DNA from: a virus
Taxonomy: Duplodnaviria; Heunggongvirae; Uroviricota; Caudoviricetes
Virus record (IMG/VR): IMGVR_UViG_2541047787_000003
Span: 1-9,992 of that record
DNA: 9,992 bases
Direction: 5' to 3' (one strand)
Below the pieces are notes generated by a model that was given only the letters and a program-made list of their open reading frames with translations, did not search any database and was not told the DNA's origin. Both the position numbers and the translations under genes were made by a program. Shown here piece by piece: positions 1 to 9,992 of the stretch; positions within the stretch are counted from its first letter, which is position 1, and the number at the start of each line of letters is the position of its first letter.

Positions 1-672
1 ATGGCAGCGACGCACACACTCCCTCTGGCGTCACCGGGCATGGCGCGCATCTGCCTTTACGGGGATTTACAACGATTTGGCCGCCGCATCGACCTTCGTG
101 TGAAAACGGGGGCTGAAGCCATCCGCGCACTGGCCACACAGCTCCCGGCGTTTCGTCAGAAACTGAGCGACGGCTGGTATCAGGTACGGATTTCCGGGCG
201 GGACGTCAGCACGTCCGGATTGACGGCGCAGTTACATGAGGTTCTGCCTGACGGCGCTGTGATTCATATTGTTCCCAGAGTCGCCGGGGCCAAGTCAGGG
301 GGCGTATTCCAGATTGTCCTGGGAGCAGCCGCCATTGCCGGATCATTCTTTACCGCCGGAGCCACCCTTGCAGCATGGGGGGCAGCCATTGGGGCCGGTG
401 GTATGACCGGCATCCTGTTTTCTCTCGGTGCCAGTATGGTACTTGGTGGTGTGGCGCAGATGCTGGCACCGAAAGCCAGAACTCCCCGTACACAGACAAC
501 GGATAACGGCAAACAAAACACGTATTTCTCCTCACTGGATAACATGGTTGCCCAGGGCAATGTTCTGCCCGTTCTGTACGGTGAAATGCGCGTGGGGTCG
601 CGGGTGGTATCTCAGGAAATCAGCACGGCAGACGAAGGGGACGGTGGTCAGGTTGTGGTGATTGGTCGCTGA
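1..672 (+). CDS. I: Tail assembly protein I (lambda gpI-like), complete 223-aa ORF
   Basis: ORF starts at ATG position 1 and ends at TGA 670-672. The translation (MAATHTLPLASPGMARICLYGDLQRFGRRIDLRVKTGAEAIRALATQLP...EGDGGQVVVIGR) matches lambda gpI as I recall it, including the Gly/Ala-rich hydrophobic middle. It sits directly upstream of J, as in lambda. Confidence 0.9.
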   Translation: MAATHTLPLASPGMARICLYGDLQRFGRRIDLRVKTGAEAIRALATQLPAFRQKLSDGWYQVRISGRDVSTSGLTAQLHEVLPDGAVIHIVPRVAGAKSGGVFQIVLGAAAIAGSFFTAGATLAAWGAAIGAGGMTGILFSLGASMVLGGVAQMLAPKARTPRTQTTDNGKQNTYFSSLDNMVAQGNVLPVLYGEMRVGSRVVSQEISTADEGDGGQVVVIGR

Positions 673-690
673 TGCAAAACATTTTATGTG

Positions 691-718
691 AAACCGCCTG
701 CGGGCGGTTTTGTCGTTT
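691..718 (+). terminator. Intergenic I-J stem-loop followed by a T-rich tract (terminator-like hairpin or RNA stability element)
   Basis: aaaccgcc (691-698) pairs perfectly with ggcggttt (703-710) around the 4-nt loop tgcg, followed by tgtcgttt. It lies between two co-transcribed late genes, so it may act only as a partial terminator, pause or processing site. Confidence 0.3.
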
Positions 719-732
719 ATGGAGCGTGAGGA

Positions 733-3700
733 ATGGGTAAAGGCAGCAGTAAGGGGCATACCCCGCGCGAAGCGAAGGACAACCTGAAATCATCCCAGAT
801 GCTGAGCGTGATAGACGCCATCAGTGAAGGGCCGATTGAAGGTCCGGTGGATGGATTAAAAAGCGTACTGCTGAACAGTACGCCGGTGCTGGACAGTGAG
901 GGGAATACCAACATCGCCGGTGTCACGGTGGTGTTCCGGGCTGGTGAGCAGGAGCAGACTCCGCCGGAGGGATTTGAATCCTCCGGCTCCGAGACGGTGC
1001 TGGGTACGGAAGTGAAATATGACACGCCGATCACCCGGACCATCACGTCGGCAAACATTGACCGACTGCGTTTTACTTTCGGCGTGCAGGCACTGGTGGA
1101 AACCACCTCAAAGGGGGACAGGAATCCATCGGAAGTCCGCCTGCTGGTTCAGATACAACGTAACGGTGGCTGGGTGACGGAAAAGGACATCACCATTAAG
1201 GGTAAAACCACTTCACAGTATCTGGCCTCGGTGGTGGTGGATAACCTGCCGCCGCGCCCGTTCAGTATCCGGATGCGCAGGATGACGCCGGACAGCACCA
1301 CAGACCAGCTGCAGAACAAAACGCTCTGGTCGTCATACACCGAAATTATCGATGTGAAACAGTGCTACCCGAACACGGCACTGGTCGGCGTGCAGGTGGA
1401 CTCGGAGCAGTTCGGCAGCCAGCAGGTGAGCCGTAATTATCATCTTCGCGGGCGCATTCTGCAGGTGCCGTCGAACTATAACCCGCAGACGCGGCAATAC
1501 AGCGGTATCTGGGACGGAACGTTTAAGCCAGCATACAGCAACAACATGGCCTGGTGTCTGTGGGATATGCTGAACCATCCGCGCTACGGCATGGGGAAAC
1601 GTCTTGGTGCAGCAGATGTGGATAAATGGGCGCTGTATGTCATCGGCCAGTACTGCGACCAGTCGGTGCCGGACGGCTTTGGCGGCACGGAGCCGCGCAT
1701 CGCCTGTAATGCGTACCTGACCACACAGCGAAAGGCGTGGGATGTGCTCAGTGATTTCTGCTCGGCGATGCGCTGTATGCCGGTATGGAACGGGCAGACG
1801 CTGACATTCGTGCAGGACCGACCGTCGGATAAGGTGTGGACCTATAACCGCAGTAATGTGGTGATGCCGGATGATGGCGCGCCGTTCCGCTACAGCTTCA
1901 GCGCCCTGAAAGACCGCCATAATGCCGTTGAGGTGAACTGGATTGACCCGAACAACGGCTGGGAGACGGCGACAGAGCTTGTGGAGGATACGCAGGCTAT
2001 TGCCCGTTACGGTCGTAACGTCACGAAGATGGATGCTTTTGGCTGTACCAGCCGGGGGCAGGCACACCGCGCCGGGCTGTGGCTGATTAAAACAGAGCTG
2101 CTGGAAACGCAGACCGTGGACTTCAGCGTGGGCGCAGAAGGGCTTCGCCATGTGCCGGGCGATGTTATTGAAATCTGTGATGATGACTATGCCGGTATCA
2201 GCATCGGCGGGCGCGTGCTGGCGGTAAACAGCCAGACCCGGACGCTGACGCTCGACCGTGAAATCACGCTACCATCCTCCGGTACCACGCTGATAAGCCT
2301 GGTTGACGGAAGTGGCAATCCGGTCAGCGTGGAGGTTCAGTCCGTCACCGACGGCGTGAAGGTAAAAGTGAGCCGTGTTCCTGACGGCGTTGCCGGATAC
2401 AGCGTGTGGGGGCTGAAGTTGCCGACGCTGCGTCAGCGCCTGTTCCGCTGTGTGAGTATCCGTGAGAACGATGACGGCACGTATGCCATCACTGCCGTGC
2501 AGCATGTGCCGGAAAAAGAGGCCATCGTGGATAACGGGGCGCACTTTGACGGTGACCAGAGCGGCACGGTGAATGGTGTCACGCCGCCAGCAGTGCAGCA
2601 TCTGACCGCCGAAGTCACTGCAGACAGCGGGGAATATCAGGTGCTGGCGCGCTGGGACACACCGAAGGTGGTGAAGGGCGTGAGCTTCCTGCTCCGTCTG
2701 ACCGTGACAGCGGATGACGGCAGTGAGCGGCTGGTCAGCACGGCCCGGACGACGGAAACCACATACCGCTTCAGGCAGCTGGCGCTGGGGAACTACAGGC
2801 TGACAGTCCGGGCGGTAAATGCGTGGGGGCAGCAGGGAGATCCGGCGTCGGTATCGTTCCGGATTGCCGCACCGGCAGCACCGTCGAGGATTGAGCTGAC
2901 GCCGGGCTATTTTCAGATAACCGCCACGCCGCATCTTGCGGTTTATGATCCGACGGTACAGTTTGAGTTCTGGTTCTCGGAAAAGCGGATTGCGGATATC
3001 AGGCAGGTTGAAACCACAGCCCGCTATCTTGGTACGGCGCTGTACTGGATAGCCGCCAGTATCAATATCAAACCGGGCCATGATTATTACTTTTATATCC
3101 GCAGTGTGAACACCGTAGGCAAATCGGCATTTGTGGAGGCCGTCGGTCGGGCGAGCGATGATGCATCCGGCTATCTGGATTTTTTCAAAGGCGAGATAGG
3201 GAAAACCCATCTGGCTCAGGAGCTGTGGACGCAGATTGATAACGGTCAGCTTGCGCCTGACCTGGCTGAAATCAGGACGTCCATTACGGATGTCAGCAAT
3301 GAAATCACGCAGACCGTCAATAAGAAACTGGAAGACCAGAGTGCGGCAATTCAGCAGATACAGAAGGTTCAGGTTGATACAAATAATAACCTGAACAGCA
3401 TGTGGGCTGTGAAGCTGCAGCAGATGCAGGACGGACGCCTTTATATCGCGGGTATTGGTGCCGGTATTGAGAACACCCCTGACGGCATGCAGAGTCAGGT
3501 GCTGCTGGCGGCGGACAGGATTGCGATGGTTAATCCTGCGAATGGCAACACAAAACCGATGTTTGTTGGTCAGGGCGATCAGATATTCATGAACGACGTG
3601 TTCCTGAAACGCCTGACGGCTCCCACCATTACCAGCGGTGGAAATCCACCGGCATTTTCCCTGACACCGGACGGGCGACTGACGGCGAAAAATGCGGATA

Positions 3701-4212
3701 TCAGTGGCAGTGTGAATGCGAACGCCGGGACGCTCAACAATGTCACGATTAATGAAAACTGTCGGGTTCTGGGAAAACTGTCTGCGAACCAGATTGAAGG
3801 CGATCTCGTTAAAACAGTGGGCAAAGCTTTCCCCCGGGACTCCCGTGCACCGGAGCGGTGGCCATCAGGGACCATTACCGTCAGGGTTTATGACGATCAG
3901 CCGTTTGACCGGCAGATTGTTATTCCCGCGGTGGCGTTTCGTGGCGCTAAACATGAGCGGGAGAATAACGATATTTATTCGTCATGCCGCCTGATAGTGA
4001 AGAAAAACGGTGCTGAAATTTATAACCGTACCGCGCTGGATAATACGCTGGTTTATACAGGTGTTATTGATATGCCTGCTGGTCGCGGTCACATGACGCT
4101 GGAGTTTTCGGTATCAGCGTGGCTGGTAAATGACTGGTATCCCACAGCCAGTATCAGTGATTTGCTGGTTGTGGTGATGAAGAAATCCACAGCAGGTATC
4201 ACGATTAGCTGA
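733..4212 (+). CDS. J: Host specificity protein J (central tail fiber / tip attachment protein), 1159 aa
   Basis: ATG at 733 preceded by an RBS-like ggagcgtgagga. The long ORF translation ([20 protein letters not shown]...[55 protein letters not shown]...) matches lambda gpJ through the N-terminal and central parts as I recall them. Gene order I-J-lom is as in lambda. Confidence 0.95.
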
Positions 4213-4232
4213 ATTTTCATAACCCATATGCG

Positions 4233-4259
4233 GGCGCCATTTCTGGCGCCTTTTTTATT
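4233..4259 (+). terminator. Rho-independent terminator downstream of J (tJ-like)
   Basis: Palindromic GC stem ggcgcca (4233-4239) / tggcgcc (4244-4250) with loop tttc, immediately followed by ttttttatt (4251-4259). It starts 21 nt after the J stop. Confidence 0.7.
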
Positions 4260-4280
4260 GCAGAAAAGCGAGAGGTAATT

Positions 4281-4880
4281 ATGCGTAAAGTTTGTGCAGC
4301 CATTTTGTCCGCAGCCATCTGTCTGGCCGTATCCGGTGCGCCTGCATGGGCGTCTGAGCAGCAGGCCACACTGAGCGCAGGGTATCTTCATGCCCGTACG
4401 AACGCTCCCGGCAGCGATAATCTGAACGGGATTAACGTGAAATACCGTTATGAGTTTACGGACACGCTGGGGCTGATTACGTCATTCAGTTATGCCAACG
4501 CTGAAGATGAGCAAAAAACGCATTACAGCGATACCCGCTGGCATGAGGATTCCGTGCGTAACCGCTGGTTCAGCGTGATGGCGGGGCCGTCTGTGCGCGT
4601 GAATGAATGGTTCAGCGCGTATGCGATGGCAGGCGTGGCTTACAGCCGTGTGTCGACTTTTTCCGGGGATTATCTCCGCGTAACTGACAACAAGGGAAAA
4701 ACGCACGACGTGCTGACCGGAAGTGATGACGCTCGCCACAGTAACACCTCTCTGGCGTGGGGAGCTGGCGTGCAGTTTAACCCGACCGAATCCGTGGCCG
4801 TTGATGTCGCTTATGAAGGCTCCGGCAGTGGCAACTGGCGCACTGACGGGTTCATCGTGGGTGTCGGTTATAAGTTCTGA
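4281..4880 (+). CDS. lom: Outer membrane protein Lom (Ail/Lom family beta-barrel), 199 aa with N-terminal signal peptide
   Basis: ATG at 4281 with RBS gagagg 7 nt upstream. The translation starts MRKVCAAILSAAICLAVSGAPAWA (a signal peptide with an AxA cleavage motif) and ends ...DGFIVGVGYKF with a C-terminal aromatic residue, typical of outer-membrane beta-barrels. It matches lambda Lom as I recall it, in the same position after J. Confidence 0.9.
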   Translation: MRKVCAAILSAAICLAVSGAPAWASEQQATLSAGYLHARTNAPGSDNLNGINVKYRYEFTDTLGLITSFSYANAEDEQKTHYSDTRWHEDSVRNRWFSVMAGPSVRVNEWFSAYAMAGVAYSRVSTFSGDYLRVTDNKGKTHDVLTGSDDARHSNTSLAWGAGVQFNPTESVAVDVAYEGSGSGNWRTDGFIVGVGYKF

Positions 4881-4906
4881 TTAGCCAGGTAACACAGTGT
4901 TATGAC

Positions 4907-4934
4907 AGCCCGCCGGTTCAGGCGGGCTTTTTTG
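4907..4934 (+). terminator. Rho-independent terminator downstream of lom
   Basis: Stem agcccgcc (4907-4914) / ggcgggct (4921-4928) with loop ggttca, followed by tttttgt (4929-4935). It lies between the lom stop and the side tail fiber start. Confidence 0.65.
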
Positions 4935-4944
4935 TGGGGTGAAT

Positions 4945-7900
4945 ATGGCAGTAAAGATTTCAGGTGTACTGAAAGACGGTGCAGGTAAACCGGTACAGAA
5001 CTGCACAATCCAGCTGAAAGCAAAACGTAACAGCACCACGGTGGTGGTGAACACGGTGGCATCTGAAAATCCGGATGAAGCCGGGCGTTACAGCATGGAC
5101 GTTGAGTACGGTCAGTACAGCGTTATTCTGTTGGTGGAAGGATTCCCGCCGTCACATGCCGGGACCATCACCGTGTATGAAGATTCCCGACCCGGTACGC
5201 TGAATGATTTTCTCGGTGCCATGACGGAGGATGATGCCCGTCCGGAGGCACTGCGCCGCTTTGAACTGATGGTGGAAGAGGTGGCGCGTAACGCGTCCGC
5301 AGTGGCGCAGAACACAGCAGCCGCGAAGAAGTCAGCCAGCGATGCCGGCACATCAGCCCGTGAGGCGGCAACCCGTGCGACTGATGCTGCAGGCTCAGCA
5401 CGTGCAGCCAGCACGTCAGCCGGACAGGCCGCGTCGTCGGCTCAGTCAGCGTCTTCCAGCGCAGGAACGGCATCAGCAAAGGCTACTGAAGCATCAAAAA
5501 GTGCTGCCGCTGCAGAGTCTTCAAAAAGCGCGGCAGCCACCAGTGCCGGTGCAGCGAAAACGTCGGAAATGAATGCCGCAGCATCACAAAAATCTGCGGC
5601 CACATCTGCATCCACCGCGACCACGAAAGCGTCAGAAGCTGCCACCTCAGCCCGGGATGCGTCGGCTTCAAAAGTGGCGGCAAAATCATCAGAAACGAGC
5701 GCTGCCTCGAGCGCCGGCAGTGCAGCTTCCTCGGCAACGGCAGCAGGAAATTCCGCGAAGGCCGCAAAAACGTCTGAGACGAATGCGGATAACAGCGCAC
5801 AGGCGGCAGCAGACTCACAAACTGCATCGGCAAACTCCGCGACAGCAGCCAAAAAATCAGAAACCAACGCGAAAAATAGTGAGTCAGCAGCAAAGGTCAG
5901 CGAAACCAACGCTAAAGCGTCAGAGAACAAGGCGAAAGAATATCTCGACAAGGTCGGGGGACTCGTCAGCCCGATGACGCAATACGATTGGCCTGTTGTT
6001 ACTGCTAGTGAGTCTCTTTACATCAAGATCGCGAAACTTTCCGATCCTGGAACCAGCAGAAGTCATGTAACGCTAATGGTTACTAACGCTGGTAACTACG
6101 GCTCCCCTTACGGAAACATTGACTTTATCGAGATCTCGGCGCGCGGTCTGCCTTCTTTGCTTAGTGCGGATAATGTTTCTCGTCATCTGAGTATACGCCG
6201 CTTAGGGTCAACCGGGCTGACCGATAACAACCAGATGCGTTACGGCCTGGTTAAAGGTGACGGCTTTATTGAGGTTTGGGCATTCCAGGGTGCGTTTATT
6301 AACGACGCAAAGGTTGCGGTGCTGGCGCAGACAACACTAAACACAGAATTATACATTCCAGACGGATTTGTTAAGCAAACCGCCGCGCCTTCTGGATATA
6401 TTGAAGGCAACGTTGTAAGGATTTACGACCAGGTAAACAAGCCGACTAAAGCAGATTTGGGTCTTTCTAATGCTATGCTTACAGGCGCTTTCGGTCTTGG
6501 CGGTAGCGGGATATCAACAAACGGCAAGATGAGCGATGTAGAGATCTTAAAAGCTCTGCGTGACAAAGGTGGTCATTTCTGGCGCGGTGATAAGCCGACC
6601 GGAAGCACGGCGACCATTTATAGCCACGGTTCTGGTATATTCTCGCGGTGCGGCGATACGTGGTCAGCGATCAATATCGACTACTCAACCGCGAAGATTA
6701 AGATCTATGCCGGCAACGATGCCCGGCTTAACAACGGGACTTTTAGCGTCAATGAGCTATACGGCTCGGCAAACAAGCCGTCGAAATCGGATGTTGGACT
6801 TGGCAACGTAACGAACGATGCGCAGGTAAAAAAAACCGGCGATACAATGACCGGTGACTTGACAATCAAAAAAGGTACACCGTCAGTCTTCCTGCGGGCA
6901 GACAGTGGAGTCACCGCTTTGCGGTTTTATACTGGCGATAACACAGAGCGCGGCATAATCTATGCTGGTCCTAACACTGATTCGCTTGGCGAAGTTCGCA
7001 TCAGGGCAAAGACAGCAGGGGGGACATCAGGAGGGGATCTTGTTGTTCGTCACGACGGGAGGGTTGAAGTCCGTGATCTCACAGTAGCGTATAAAATTAA
7101 AAGCAGAACGATTGAGATTGCAAATACCGACACTGACTCATCGGCAACTACGCTAAGCATCTATGGAGTACAGCACACGCCGTTGGTTTTAACGCGTTCT
7201 GGTTCTTCTGAAAATGTGTCCATTGGGTTTAAGTTAGACAACATGAACCCAAAGTATCTTGGAATTGATACTAATGGGGATCTGGCTTTTGGTGAGAGTC
7301 CTGATCAGAAACAAAACAGCAAATTGATCACGCAAGCGAAACTCGACAAGGGATTAACGATTGGTGGTCAACTGGCTTTCAAAGGTACGACAGCGTTTTC
7401 AGCCGTTGCTACGTTCAGTGCCGGGATAGCAGGAGCCATCGAGCCGGAAAACATTGACGGCCAGACGGTTAATCTTAACAACCTGACCATCATCAAGTCA
7501 GATGCCGGGGCAGTTAAATACTATATTTGTCCATCCTCTGCAGGTGGTGCAAATATCACCAACAAGCCTGACGGCGTAACAGGTAACTTTTTGCTCCGTG
7601 TTGAATCGACTCGTAAGGTTAGGGATTCAGATTATGCGAACATGCAAACGCTGATTAACAGCGACACAAAACGTATATACGTTCGCTTTGTTGTTAATGG
7701 AAACTGGACAGCGTGGAGTCAGGTTGTTGTTTCCGGATGGAATCAGGATGTAACCGTCAGGTCGTTAACCTCGACGACTCCATCAAAATTAGGTGGCGGG
7801 CGGATTGATGTGCTTGGAAGTACGTCAGATTATGGCAGCATGAATTGTACCGTTCGTGGTGTTGATAGCACTGGAACCAATTCGGCGTGGTCGGTAGGCA

Positions 7901-8724
7901 CATCAGAAAGCACAGGCAAAATGTTGTTCCTGAAAAACCACAGAAGCAGCGCTCAAGTGCTGTTAAATGGCGATGATGGCGCGGTTCAACTACTAAGTGG
8001 CACTGTTAACGGTGCTACAGCGCAGGCGCTAACCATCAACAAAGATGAGGTTAACTCAACTGCCGATTTAGTAATTAGAAAACAAACAGGGACTGGCAAT
8101 CGTTTTGCTTTACTTAATTCAGGTAATTCAGAACTACCAGTTAGTATCAGGGTGTGGGGTTCCAGTACTCGACAAAACGTTTTTGAGGTTGGCACGTCTG
8201 CTGCGTATCTGTTTTATGCGCAAAAAACAACAGACGGGCAAAACCTTACTGTAAACGGAAGTGTTAACTGCACCACACTGAATCAGTCATCAGACCGCAG
8301 ACTGAAAGAAAATATCGAGATTATCGATAACGCGACTGACGCAATCCGCAAAATTAATGGATACACGTACACGCTCAAGGAGAATGGGGCACATTGCGCC
8401 GGGGTTATAGCCCAGGAAGTTGAAGAGGCCATCCCGGAGGCCGTTGGTTCATTCATCCATTACGGTGAAGAGTTGCAAGGTCCGACCGTTGACGGCAACG
8501 AGCTACGCGAAGAAACGCGCTATCTTAATGTTGACTACGCCGCCGTGACGGGCTTACTTGTTCAGTTCGCCCGTGAAACAGATGATCGCGTTACCGCGCT
8601 GGAAGAGGAAAACACAACGCTACGTCAAAATCTGGCAACAGCAGACACCCGGATCAGCACTCTGGAAAATCAGGTAAGCGAACTGGTTGCACTTGTCCGG
8701 CAGTTAACAGGAAGCGAACATTGA
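4945..8724 (+). CDS. stf: Side tail fiber protein, chimeric: lambda Stf-like N-terminus, Ala/Ser-rich shaft, divergent distal receptor-binding region, and C-terminal self-cleaving intramolecular chaperone domain
   Basis: The ORF track calls 4939-8724 from a GTG, but the ATG at 4945 gives MAVKISGVLKDGAGKPVQNCTIQLKA..., which matches the lambda Stf N-terminus as recalled and has a ggggtg RBS upstream. The distal part carries fiber-type motifs (NKPSKSDVGLGNVTNDAQVKKTGDTMTGDLTI). The C-terminus carries the S-D-R-R-L-K-E-N motif and a terminal coiled coil typical of peptidase S74 chaperone domains. Confidence 0.85.
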   Translation: MAVKISGVLKDGAGKPVQNCTIQLKAKRNSTTVVVNTVASENPDEAGRYSMDVEYGQYSVILLVEGFPPSHAGTITVYEDSRPGTLNDFLGAMTEDDARPEALRRFELMVEEVARNASAVAQNTAAAKKSASDAGTSAREAATRATDAAGSARAASTSAGQAASSAQSASSSAGTASAKATEASKSAAAAESSKSAAATSAGAAKTSEMNAAASQKSAATSASTATTKASEAATSARDASASKVAAKSSETSAASSAGSAASSATAAGNSAKAAKTSETNADNSAQAAADSQTASANSATAAKKSETNAKNSESAAKVSETNAKASENKAKEYLDKVGGLVSPMTQYDWPVVTASESLYIKIAKLSDPGTSRSHVTLMVTNAGNYGSPYGNIDFIEISARGLPSLLSADNVSRHLSIRRLGSTGLTDNNQMRYGLVKGDGFIEVWAFQGAFINDAKVAVLAQTTLNTELYIPDGFVKQTAAPSGYIEGNVVRIYDQVNKPTKADLGLSNAMLTGAFGLGGSGISTNGKMSDVEILKALRDKGGHFWRGDKPTGSTATIYSHGSGIFSRCGDTWSAINIDYSTAKIKIYAGNDARLNNGTFSVNELYGSANKPSKSDVGLGNVTNDAQVKKTGDTMTGDLTIKKGTPSVFLRADSGVTALRFYTGDNTERGIIYAGPNTDSLGEVRIRAKTAGGTSGGDLVVRHDGRVEVRDLTVAYKIKSRTIEIANTDTDSSATTLSIYGVQHTPLVLTRSGSSENVSIGFKLDNMNPKYLGIDTNGDLAFGESPDQKQNSKLITQAKLDKGLTIGGQLAFKGTTAFSAVATFSAGIAGAIEPENIDGQTVNLNNLTIIKSDAGAVKYYICPSSAGGANITNKPDGVTGNFLLRVESTRKVRDSDYANMQTLINSDTKRIYVRFVVNGNWTAWSQVVVSGWNQDVTVRSLTSTTPSKLGGGRIDVLGSTSDYGSMNCTVRGVDSTGTNSAWSVGTSESTGKMLFLKNHRSSAQVLLNGDDGAVQLLSGTVNGATAQALTINKDEVNSTADLVIRKQTGTGNRFALLNSGNSELPVSIRVWGSSTRQNVFEVGTSAAYLFYAQKTTDGQNLTVNGSVNCTTLNQSSDRRLKENIEIIDNATDAIRKINGYTYTLKENGAHCAGVIAQEVEEAIPEAVGSFIHYGEELQGPTVDGNELREETRYLNVDYAAVTGLLVQFARETDDRVTALEEENTTLRQNLATADTRISTLENQVSELVALVRQLTGSEH
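5280..5950 (+). repeat. Low-complexity Ala/Ser/Thr/Lys-rich repetitive coding region (fiber shaft) within stf
   Basis: About 220 aa dominated by A, S, T and K with recurring K-x-S-E-(T/M)-N-A units, for example aaaacgtcggaaatgaatgcc, aaaacgtctgagacgaatgcg, aaaaaatcagaaaccaacgcg and aaggtcagcgaaaccaacgct. This explains the many spurious overlapping ORFs called here in other frames. Confidence 0.6.
8293..8721 (+). other. Predicted C-terminal intramolecular chaperone / autoproteolytic domain (peptidase S74-like) of the tail fiber, about 143 aa, released after trimerisation
   Basis: Motif NQSS|DRRLKENIEIID (codons at 8281-8319) has the Ser and Lys spaced 5 residues apart, as in the catalytic Ser-Lys dyad of endosialidase-type chaperone domains. 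It is followed by ...YLNVDYAAVTGLL... and a terminal heptad-like stretch RVTALEEENTTLRQNLATADTRISTLENQVSELVALVRQL. Confidence 0.6.
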
Positions 8725-8907
8725 TATCCTTCAAGCTCTGAAGGAGGCTGTTCCCGGTACGTTCAGACTGTTGTTGAGCTGGAAATCGCAACGGAGGAAG
8801 AAACCTTGTTGCTGGAAGCCTGGAAAAAGTATCGGGTGTTGCTGAACCGTGTTGATACATCAACTGCACCTGATATTGAGTGGCCTACGAACCCTGTCAG
8901 GGAGTAA
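8725..8907 (+). pseudogene. tfa: Remnant of a tail fiber assembly (tfa) gene 3' end, with no start codon
   Basis: The 60 codons immediately after the stf stop, in the same frame, read [60 protein letters not shown]. The ...[25 protein letters not shown]... portion is the conserved C-terminal signature of Tfa-family assembly chaperones as I recall it. There is no ATG/GTG/TTG start in this frame and no N-terminal Tfa domain. Confidence 0.6.
8779..8862 (+). repeat. Direct repeat copy A (tfa 3'-end sequence), partner at 9828-9911
   Basis: ctggaaatcgcaacggaggaagaaa (8779-8803) is identical to 9828-9852. Similarity continues through ...tatcgggtgttgctgaaccgtgttgatacatca, which pairs with ...tatcgggtattgttgaatcgagttgatacatca; by eye roughly 80% identical over about 84 nt. 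Confidence 0.7.
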
Positions 8908-8921
8908 TCATTGGGATTATG

Positions 8922-8954
8922 CCGCAGCACGTCTTAAGCAAGAACGTGCTGCGG
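8922..8954. other. Strong hairpin (11-bp perfect inverted repeat) at the convergent junction between the tfa remnant and the methyltransferase gene; possible bidirectional terminator
   Basis: ccgcagcacgt (8922-8932) and acgtgctgcgg (8944-8954) are exact reverse complements around an 11-nt loop. A T-run (8965-8970) follows on the + strand but overlaps the methyltransferase codons, so it is not a canonical terminator. Confidence 0.4.
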
Positions 8955-8961
8955 TTGGATG

Positions 8962-9630
8962 CTATTTTTTCCCTGAAGCGGAAAACATTACTACAGTACC
9001 TTGAACCTTGGTTTTAACATTCTCGAAATGCTCTGAGAGTATATGTGTTAAGCCTTCTTCGGAATCTTTTGTGTTTGAAAAGATACCTTTCTGATTGTAA
9101 ATGCGCATCAGTTTTTGACCGAAGCTATTGTGCACAACTCCATCGCCAAGAATTGTGGCTCCGTATAGAGTTCCATCGTCAGTTAAGGCCTGCGCCGCAT
9201 TGCGTATTACACAGCATTTTGTAGATATATTTCCAGGCAGGCAGTGAAGAAGGTAAAACATGGAAATGGAATCAAATTGACCATGTAACGCCGCGGGATA
9301 AGGTTCAAAAACATCATGGTTAATTTTATGTTTAATTTTTGATTCCCCAGCCCTTGTAGATGCCGCGTTCAGGCTAGCTTCGTTCAAATCCATTAAAGAT
9401 ATCAGACTACTCTCAGGTACGTGAGTAAGGTAAAACCCAGTTCCAACACCAATATCCAGATGGTTGTTACCTAAATGTTCCAGAAAGTGTGGAAGAAGGT
9501 GTTCCTTTGTAGGACATCCCCATGCAAGCCGATTTGATACTCCCAAAACCCACCAGTCATAAAGCTTTAGGGTAAGTGGTGTGTAAATTTTAGCCCCATC
9601 ATCTGTGTTTTTTTTCATTAATTTCACCAT
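8962..9630 (-). CDS. Class I SAM-dependent methyltransferase, 222 aa, substrate unknown; AT-rich cargo (moron) gene
   Basis: Minus-strand ORF from ATG (9628-9630) to TAG (8962-8964). It has Rossmann-fold methyltransferase motifs: motif I HLDIGVGTGFYL (GxGxG), an acidic residue ending beta-2 (LISLMDLNEAS), and motif II FDSISMFYLLHCLPG. No DPPY/NPPY or PCQ/ENV DNA-methyltransferase motifs were seen. Composition is visibly AT-richer than I, J and lom, and orientation is opposite to the late operon. Confidence 0.75.
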   Translation of the reverse strand: MVKLMKKNTDDGAKIYTPLTLKLYDWWVLGVSNRLAWGCPTKEHLLPHFLEHLGNNHLDIGVGTGFYLTHVPESSLISLMDLNEASLNAASTRAGESKIKHKINHDVFEPYPAALHGQFDSISMFYLLHCLPGNISTKCCVIRNAAQALTDDGTLYGATILGDGVVHNSFGQKLMRIYNQKGIFSNTKDSEEGLTHILSEHFENVKTKVQGTVVMFSASGKK

Positions 9631-9659
9631 GTTATAGTTTTATTTGTGAATTAAATCAA
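9631..9659 (-). promoter_or_regulatory. Candidate sigma70-type promoter for the methyltransferase gene
   Basis: On the minus strand: TTGATT (complement of 9654-9659), a 17-nt spacer, then TATAAC (complement of 9631-9636), immediately upstream of the start. The region is AT-rich so chance matches are likely, and the leader would be very short unless the second ATG (9616-9618, giving MKKN...) is the true start. Confidence 0.25.
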
Positions 9660-9686
9660 TTATGGCGATGAATTACAAGGGGTTAA

Positions 9687-9992
9687 ATGCTGCCGCAGCA
9701 TAGCGATATTGAAATAGCATGGTATGCTTCGATACAGCAGGAGCCGAATGGCTGGAAGACCGTCACCACACAGTTCTACATCCAGGAATTCAGTGAGTAT
9801 ATTGCGCCACTGCAGGATGCTGTAGATCTGGAAATCGCAACGGAGGAAGAAAGATCGTTGCTGGAGGCATGGAATAAATATCGGGTATTGTTGAATCGAG
9901 TTGATACATCAGTAGCTCTGGGTATGAAGCTGTTTGTAACTCATGTTACAGTAACAGCCATTACTATCTCGAAGGTGCAAAATGTATATTGA
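9687..9992 (+). CDS. Small Tfa-like protein (tail fiber assembly C-terminal motif with divergent tail), 101 aa; possibly a truncated or alternative tfa
   Basis: ATG at 9687 with RBS aagggg 5-6 nt upstream; stop TGA at 9990-9992. The translation contains ...[29 protein letters not shown]..., homologous to the Tfa C-terminal signature, but then diverges ([26 protein letters not shown]) and lacks the terminal APDIEWP motif. It is too short for a full Tfa. Confidence 0.5.
9828..9911 (+). repeat. Direct repeat copy B (tfa 3'-end sequence), partner at 8779-8862
   Basis: See copy A. The 25-nt core ctggaaatcgcaacggaggaagaaa is identical, with flanking similarity to ...gttgatacatca. Confidence 0.7.

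Follow-up and report, generated by a model that had tools for sequence, protein, structure and literature searches.

The window analyzed here, a stretch of 9,992 nt of DNA (positions 1 to 9,992 of IMG/VR record IMGVR_UViG_2541047787_000003), is the tail end of a lambdoid prophage. Pfam matches give the gene order I, J, lom and stf, and the prophage is of a type that is integrated beside ompT/envY/nfrA, where Escherichia coli K-12 carries the cryptic prophage DLP12. The side tail fiber gene stf is followed by a 3′ piece of the tail fiber assembly gene tfa, a hairpin, a convergent methyltransferase gene and a second tfa piece (Table 1).

Table 1 Features of the window at and around the junction between stf and the tfa remnant.
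Feature	Coordinates	Strand	Description and evidence
stf, side tail fiber gene	4939-8724	+	1261 aa; PGAP-style start ATG 4945; stop TGA 8722-8724
Exchanged cassette: S74-type distal fiber module and filler	5787-8761	+	blastn versus PhiR26_1
Peptidase_S74 intramolecular chaperone domain of Stf	8287-8721	+	Translation, Pfam, alignment with 6F45_A
Filler between stf stop and tfa-derived sequence	8725-8761	+	37 nt, seen only within the junction
Transition zone	8762-8778	+	12 of 17 bases match intact tfa (TTCAGACTGTTGTTGAG versus TTCAGGATGCTGTAGAT)
tfa 3′ remnant proper	8779-8907	+	Last 42 codons and TAA; alignments, Pfam
GC-rich hairpin just 3′ of the tfa stop	8921-8955	+	T-run 10 nt later; folding
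ybcY-like class I SAM-dependent methyltransferase	8962-9630	-	Pfam Methyltransf_12/23/25; annotations of TK3046, PhiR26_1 and K-12 ybcY
Second tfa piece, K-12 tfaX type	9687-9992	+	101-aa ORF with ATG

The N-terminus of Stf matches Pfam phage_tail_N (residues 3-136, E = 5e-72) and its C-terminus matches Pfam Peptidase_S74 (PF13884; residues 1118-1169, E = 2.6e-16). The C-terminal region carries SSDRRLKEN, a cleavage-type motif with Ser and Lys, at 8287-8313 and a coiled-coil at its end. Its stretch 'LNQSSDRRLKENIEII' could be aligned with 'LNVSSDRRIKKDIKAF' in the fiber of phage S16 (6F45_A; E = 1.8e-9), SSDRRLKEN being placed against SSDRRIKKD of the S16 protein. In possessing a domain with the S-D-R-R-L-K motif, Stf resembles the S74-tipped fibers and tailspikes K1F endosialidase, T5 pb1 and S16 gp37. 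Unlike in these proteins, the domain is mounted on a lambda-type Stf N-terminus, and its self-cleavage after folding of the trimer is a prediction. Fibers of other coliphages have been described as relying either on a chaperone domain of their own or on a separately encoded Tfa (doi 10.1101/2024.09.12.612763). Because Stf ends in its own S74 intramolecular chaperone, a separate Tfa would not be needed. An Ala/Ser/Thr-rich low-complexity stretch (…AAGSARAASTSAGQAASSAQSASSSAG…) is located at residues ~120-330 of Stf (window 5300-5950). In the prophage of E. coli TK3046 (L001), positions 5646-9425 correspond to window 4945-8724, and stf is annotated there by PGAP as two features, a pseudogene for the N-terminal part and a separate 'pyocin knob domain-containing S74 family peptidase'; the window ORF is continuous over 1261 aa. 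The TK3046 prophage is otherwise near-identical, and the window differs from it left of ~6000.

After the TGA of stf, 60 codons remain open in the same frame (8725-8904) up to a TAA at 8905-8907, as an earlier note on this DNA had described. The note took all 60 codons for the C-terminus of Tfa. This identification stands for the last ~48 codons, whereas the 12 codons in front of these do not come from tfa, and the tfa-derived part of the region is 8762-8907. Residues 13-57 of the translation match positions 86-130 of the 131-position Pfam profile Caudo_TAP (PF02413, E = 4.2e-20), at 72.7 bits against a profile cutoff of 22.1 bits. By tblastn, residues 147-194 of lambda Tfa (orf-194) are homologous to window 8761-8904 with 79% amino acid identity. 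The translation also aligns with the conserved C-terminal domain of Mu Tfa (U), at residues 133-174 of 175 in PDB 5YVQ_B. A search of four proteins against NCBIfam gave 0 matches. The region was further aligned, as DNA and protein, with the intact tfa genes of PhiR26_1, K-12 (tfaD), lambda, tfaQ and the GPEC1354 prophage. Near-identity to intact tfa genes starts at 8779 (CTGGAAATCGC...), and 8779-8907 is ~98% identical to the intact tfa of PhiR26_1 and K-12 tfaD. Judged from these alignments, this segment belongs to the conserved C-terminal helical domain of Tfa. The transition zone that precedes it is probably the crossover or a degraded edge, and BLAST matches to tfaQ-type genes start at its first base, 8762.

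The remnant is located on the + strand from the base right after the stf stop, as is usual for a tfa gene downstream of its fiber gene. There is no in-frame ATG or GTG within 8725-8907, the earliest in-frame start-type codon being TTG at 8806. No Tfa N-terminal domain was detected in the window by tblastn with the Tfa proteins of lambda and PhiR26_1, and the single Tfa-like stretch besides the remnant corresponded to residues 132-182 of lambda Tfa (9765-9917). Phage Ayreon, which has a complete 44.7-kb genome and K-12 as host according to its record, carries the same stf-remnant junction, and tblastn found no other Tfa-like sequence in that genome. The earlier note had called the fragment a pseudogene with neither a start codon nor an N-terminal Tfa domain, and these results bear it out. 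Consistently, the identical sequence (window 8773-8907) is labeled 'tail fiber assembly protein; incomplete; missing N-terminus' by RefSeq/PGAP. In the passage of PMC9608196 that cites North et al. 2019, Tfa is described as modular, with a variable N-terminal domain that binds the fiber and a conserved C-terminal helical domain that trimerizes. Unlike lambda-type Tfa, the remnant is without the N-terminal fiber-binding domain (about 145 residues in lambda Tfa), a start codon and a usable ribosome binding site, and it would not be a functional member of the Caudo_TAP family. From the missing start codon we infer that the remnant is not expressed.

The filler was not found outside the junction, either by blastn against E. 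coli genomes and phages or by exact scans of IMG/VR and of GTDB species genomes (0 matches in two exact scans of the latter). It contains AAGGAGG at 8741-8747, in which the earlier note saw a strong Shine-Dalgarno-like element without a usable start codon after it. Indeed, no ATG, GTG or TTG occurs 4-14 nt downstream of this heptamer, but the element itself is not significant, since AAGGAGG is present once in the window against 0.88 copies expected by chance. The shared reading frame requires the junction to be in frame (1 in 3) and 12 filler codons to be free of stops (about 0.56), for a joint chance of ~0.19. Therefore, the shared frame is not evidence of design. Both the AAGGAGG and the in-frame placement are compatible with chance, and a functional explanation is needless. 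We also considered that AAGGAGG might serve a downstream gene in related S74 fibers. The S74 homologues of mEp010 and MagusPhagus diverge from the window exactly at the stop codon and have a terminator directly after it, and this candidate was rejected. The filler is in keeping with an illegitimate joining event as well as with one that was homologous within a divergent tfa.

By blastn, PhiR26_1, which has an intact stf-tfa pair, is homologous to the window at 4195-5786 (92%) and 8762-9992 (98.9%) only. Between these shared flanks, PhiR26_1 carries an ordinary distal stf and a full 194-aa tfa, whereas the window carries a 2,975-nt S74-type module. A counterpart of this cassette is absent from PhiR26_1, lambda and K-12 DLP12, where distal stf and tfa codons 1-146 are found instead. 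The cassette borders lie at about stf codon 283 and, in the alignments with intact tfa genes, at tfa codon 147 (breakpoint window 8762-8779), and about 440 nt of tfa 5′ sequence are missing. The low-complexity stretch of Stf lies just before the left border at 5786 and may represent the left-hand recombination zone. The same flanks around an intact stf-tfa pair support the proposal of the earlier note that the fragment is a deletion or recombination scar where a new distal fiber module was joined to an old tfa.

The sequence to the right of the cassette (8762-9916) is 97% identical to the tfaD-ybcY-tfaX region of K-12 DLP12 (K-12 582,0xx-583,1xx). The shared stretch comprises the tfa 3′ end, the hairpin, the ybcY methyltransferase gene and the second tfa piece. 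However, K-12 tfaD, at 187 aa, retains the greater part of Tfa apart from a changed N-terminus, compared with the last 48 codons in the window, and DLP12 has lost stf altogether, whereas the remnant in the window abuts an intact S74-type stf. The methyltransferase gene is a cargo gene flanked by two tfa 3′ pieces. The second piece is tfa-like only at 9765-9917 and continues with unrelated sequence after '...NRVDTS'. A 99-nt direct repeat (8764-8862 and 9813-9911, 84% identity) brackets the methyltransferase gene, which suggests that unequal recombination involving two tfa 3′ ends brought in this cargo.

The hairpin is conserved in PhiR26_1, K-12, 2G7b and Ayreon, and it was inherited along with the tfa 3′ end. 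Folding of 8900-8975 gave -34.4 kcal/mol (z = -5.3), and a simple terminator scan did not call the hairpin at 8921-8955. Going by its folding energy, it is possibly a late-operon terminator between stf/tfa′ and the convergent methyltransferase gene. A weak Rfam match to CssrB at 8891-8953 was below threshold (32.6 bits versus 76) and is accounted for by tfa sequence, and we rejected it as an RNA gene. In addition, PGAP annotates a 45-aa GTG ORF at 8880-9017 (+) as hypothetical protein WP_001309429.1. As it shares sequence with the last part of the remnant, with the hairpin and with the convergent methyltransferase gene at its 3′ end, the ORF is probably spurious.

Matches over the full length of the junction (window 8660-8840) were obtained in 805 of the 5,426 complete E. 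coli genomes searched. It is also found in three isolated phages (Ayreon, mEp460 and PhiR70_1), and its identity is 95-100% across these genomes and phages. Among 19 IMG/VR copies, 8720-8783 is invariant, and the copies diverge from ~8886 onward into different contexts. In 27 junction copies, a patch of 109 nt from tfa occurs as 20 alleles, which are up to ~15% different from one another, and some of these alleles are also carried by intact tfa genes. When the sequences 3′ of the tfa stop were clustered, the present junction (class A) showed at least 10 downstream contexts, five of them common with intact tfa, in an IMG/VR sample that was partly ascertained on the junction itself. These data indicate a single origin of the junction followed by spread, and the scar would thus be old and widespread.

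A scan of IMG/VR for the tfa 3′ core yielded 68 intact and 71 shortened genes, the latter including two other independent junction classes. In class B (phage 2G7b, L002 3990-4100), the junction is at GCAACGGAGG, after a different fiber module and a 99-aa hypothetical gene. In class C, it is at GGAAGCCTGG. Remnants of this kind occur at the IMG/VR loci L030, L037, L033 and L046, among others, and each of the two classes is combined with several of the same downstream contexts. In experiments, recombination through Red/RecA took place between lambda and the prophages Qin and Rac by way of stf/tfa homology (De Paepe et al. 2014, PMC3945230). The pattern of the window junction across contexts matches recombination of this kind, and here, as in lambdoid mosaic linkers and Red-mediated stf/tfa exchange (PMC3945230), a short conserved stretch flanks interchangeable cassettes. 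Unlike the lambdoid linker patches, the patch in the window is a dead gene fragment and not part of a working gene, and its role is read from the pattern of exchange. The combination of an invariant left side, a polymorphic patch and many contexts points to recurrent homologous recombination within the conserved tfa 3′ end, which would have served as a homology patch for cassette swaps.

Taken together, we interpret 8725-8907 as a start-less, non-functional tfa pseudogene relic left by a fiber-cassette swap, with a probability of about 0.85. In the order of events that we infer, an ancestral lambdoid phage would have carried stf followed by tfa. Recombination would then have swapped the sequence from about stf codon 283 through tfa codon 146 for a foreign distal fiber module ending in a Peptidase_S74 domain, which would fold the trimer and then cut itself off, making a separate Tfa dispensable. 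Because the incoming fiber brought its own S74 chaperone, the loss of Tfa would have been tolerated. All that survived of tfa would be its conserved C-terminal helical domain, devoid of a start codon and of the N-terminal domain that binds the fiber. The S74 fiber cassette may subsequently have moved among prophage backbones by using two homology arms, the conserved stf 5′ end on the left and, on the right, a tfa 3′ stretch of ~105 nt that hardly varies among most lambdoid tfa genes.

A stronger proposal is that the tfa 3′ patch is kept by phage-population-level selection as a dedicated linker for swapping host-range fiber cassettes. It is favored by the existence of at least three independently truncated classes (A, B and C), each with the same backbone set downstream, and we regard it as unlikely. 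If it were true, fiber swaps would be possible whether or not the incoming fiber needs Tfa. Almost every copy of the remnant is free of frameshifts and stops, and one could take this as a sign of constraint and against the relic interpretation. However, its divergence is low and its alleles appear to have been imported from intact genes. Recombination with intact alleles would have brought the polymorphism into the remnant, and a dN/dS-style test would therefore say nothing about constraint.

The intact frame might alternatively serve a short Tfa peptide. A Shine-Dalgarno-like GGAGG (8794-8798) is well spaced, at 7 nt, from the in-frame TTG at 8806, and internal initiation at this codon would produce a 33-aa peptide corresponding to the last helix of Tfa, with a residual or new role. 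However, the arrangement GGAGG-N7-TTG is simply the T-E-E-E-T-L-L codons of every intact tfa, many alleles have TCA TTG instead, and TTG is a weak start. Moreover, the fiber-binding N-terminal domain is missing from such a peptide (PMC9608196). We therefore consider a functional peptide very improbable. There is similarly little likelihood that the region is an sRNA gene or a functional stf 3′ UTR and not a dead coding remnant. A cmscan search matched Rfam IS009 (RF02111) at 8664-8864 (95.4 bits, E = 4e-22) and again at 9710-9913 (107.3 bits), and a stable hairpin is present after the remnant. Nevertheless, both matches are under the gathering score of 117, and the consensus of the model reads as tfa coding sequence, with the score coming from the unpaired, sequence-conserved 3′ half. 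The predicted pairs are few and some of them are non-canonical. From this comparison, an IS009 'sRNA' match in a prophage probably marks a tfa gene or a remnant of one.

Readthrough of the stf UGA, by which some ribosomes would add a 60-residue tail with the Tfa trimerization helix to the fiber, had been judged unlikely in the earlier note, and we consider it extremely so. The UGA is followed by 60 open codons in frame, and this arrangement is kept in every junction copy. However, all class A copies come from one inherited junction, so the frame is a single observation to which the joint chance of ~0.19 applies, and the independent class B is out of frame (in L002 the distance from the CDS start, 3694, to that of the tfa-frame core, 4052, is not divisible by 3). 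A UGA followed by U, as at the end of stf, is an efficient termination context in E. coli, and a recoding signal was not found. The extension would also be attached to the S74 chaperone domain, a part predicted to be removed from the mature fiber by cleavage. Finally, a sequencing or assembly error concealing an intact tfa, a possibility named in the earlier note, has a negligible probability, given the same junction in 805 complete genomes and three independently sequenced phages and the plain lack of about 440 nt of tfa 5′ sequence.

The remnant by itself matters little. It is widespread, ordinary and already annotated as a pseudogene, and annotations and counts of tail fiber assembly proteins should leave it out. 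It is a clean, datable example of host-range change in a lambdoid prophage, in which a self-chaperoning S74 tip would have displaced a Tfa-dependent tip. For the engineering of lambda-type Stf chimeras, S74-type tips are expected to work without tfa. Our results make a mild addition, in that the dead tfa end appears still to serve as a recombination patch for host-range cassettes. A dead gene end of ~105 nt can thus go on as a homology arm for cassette exchange.
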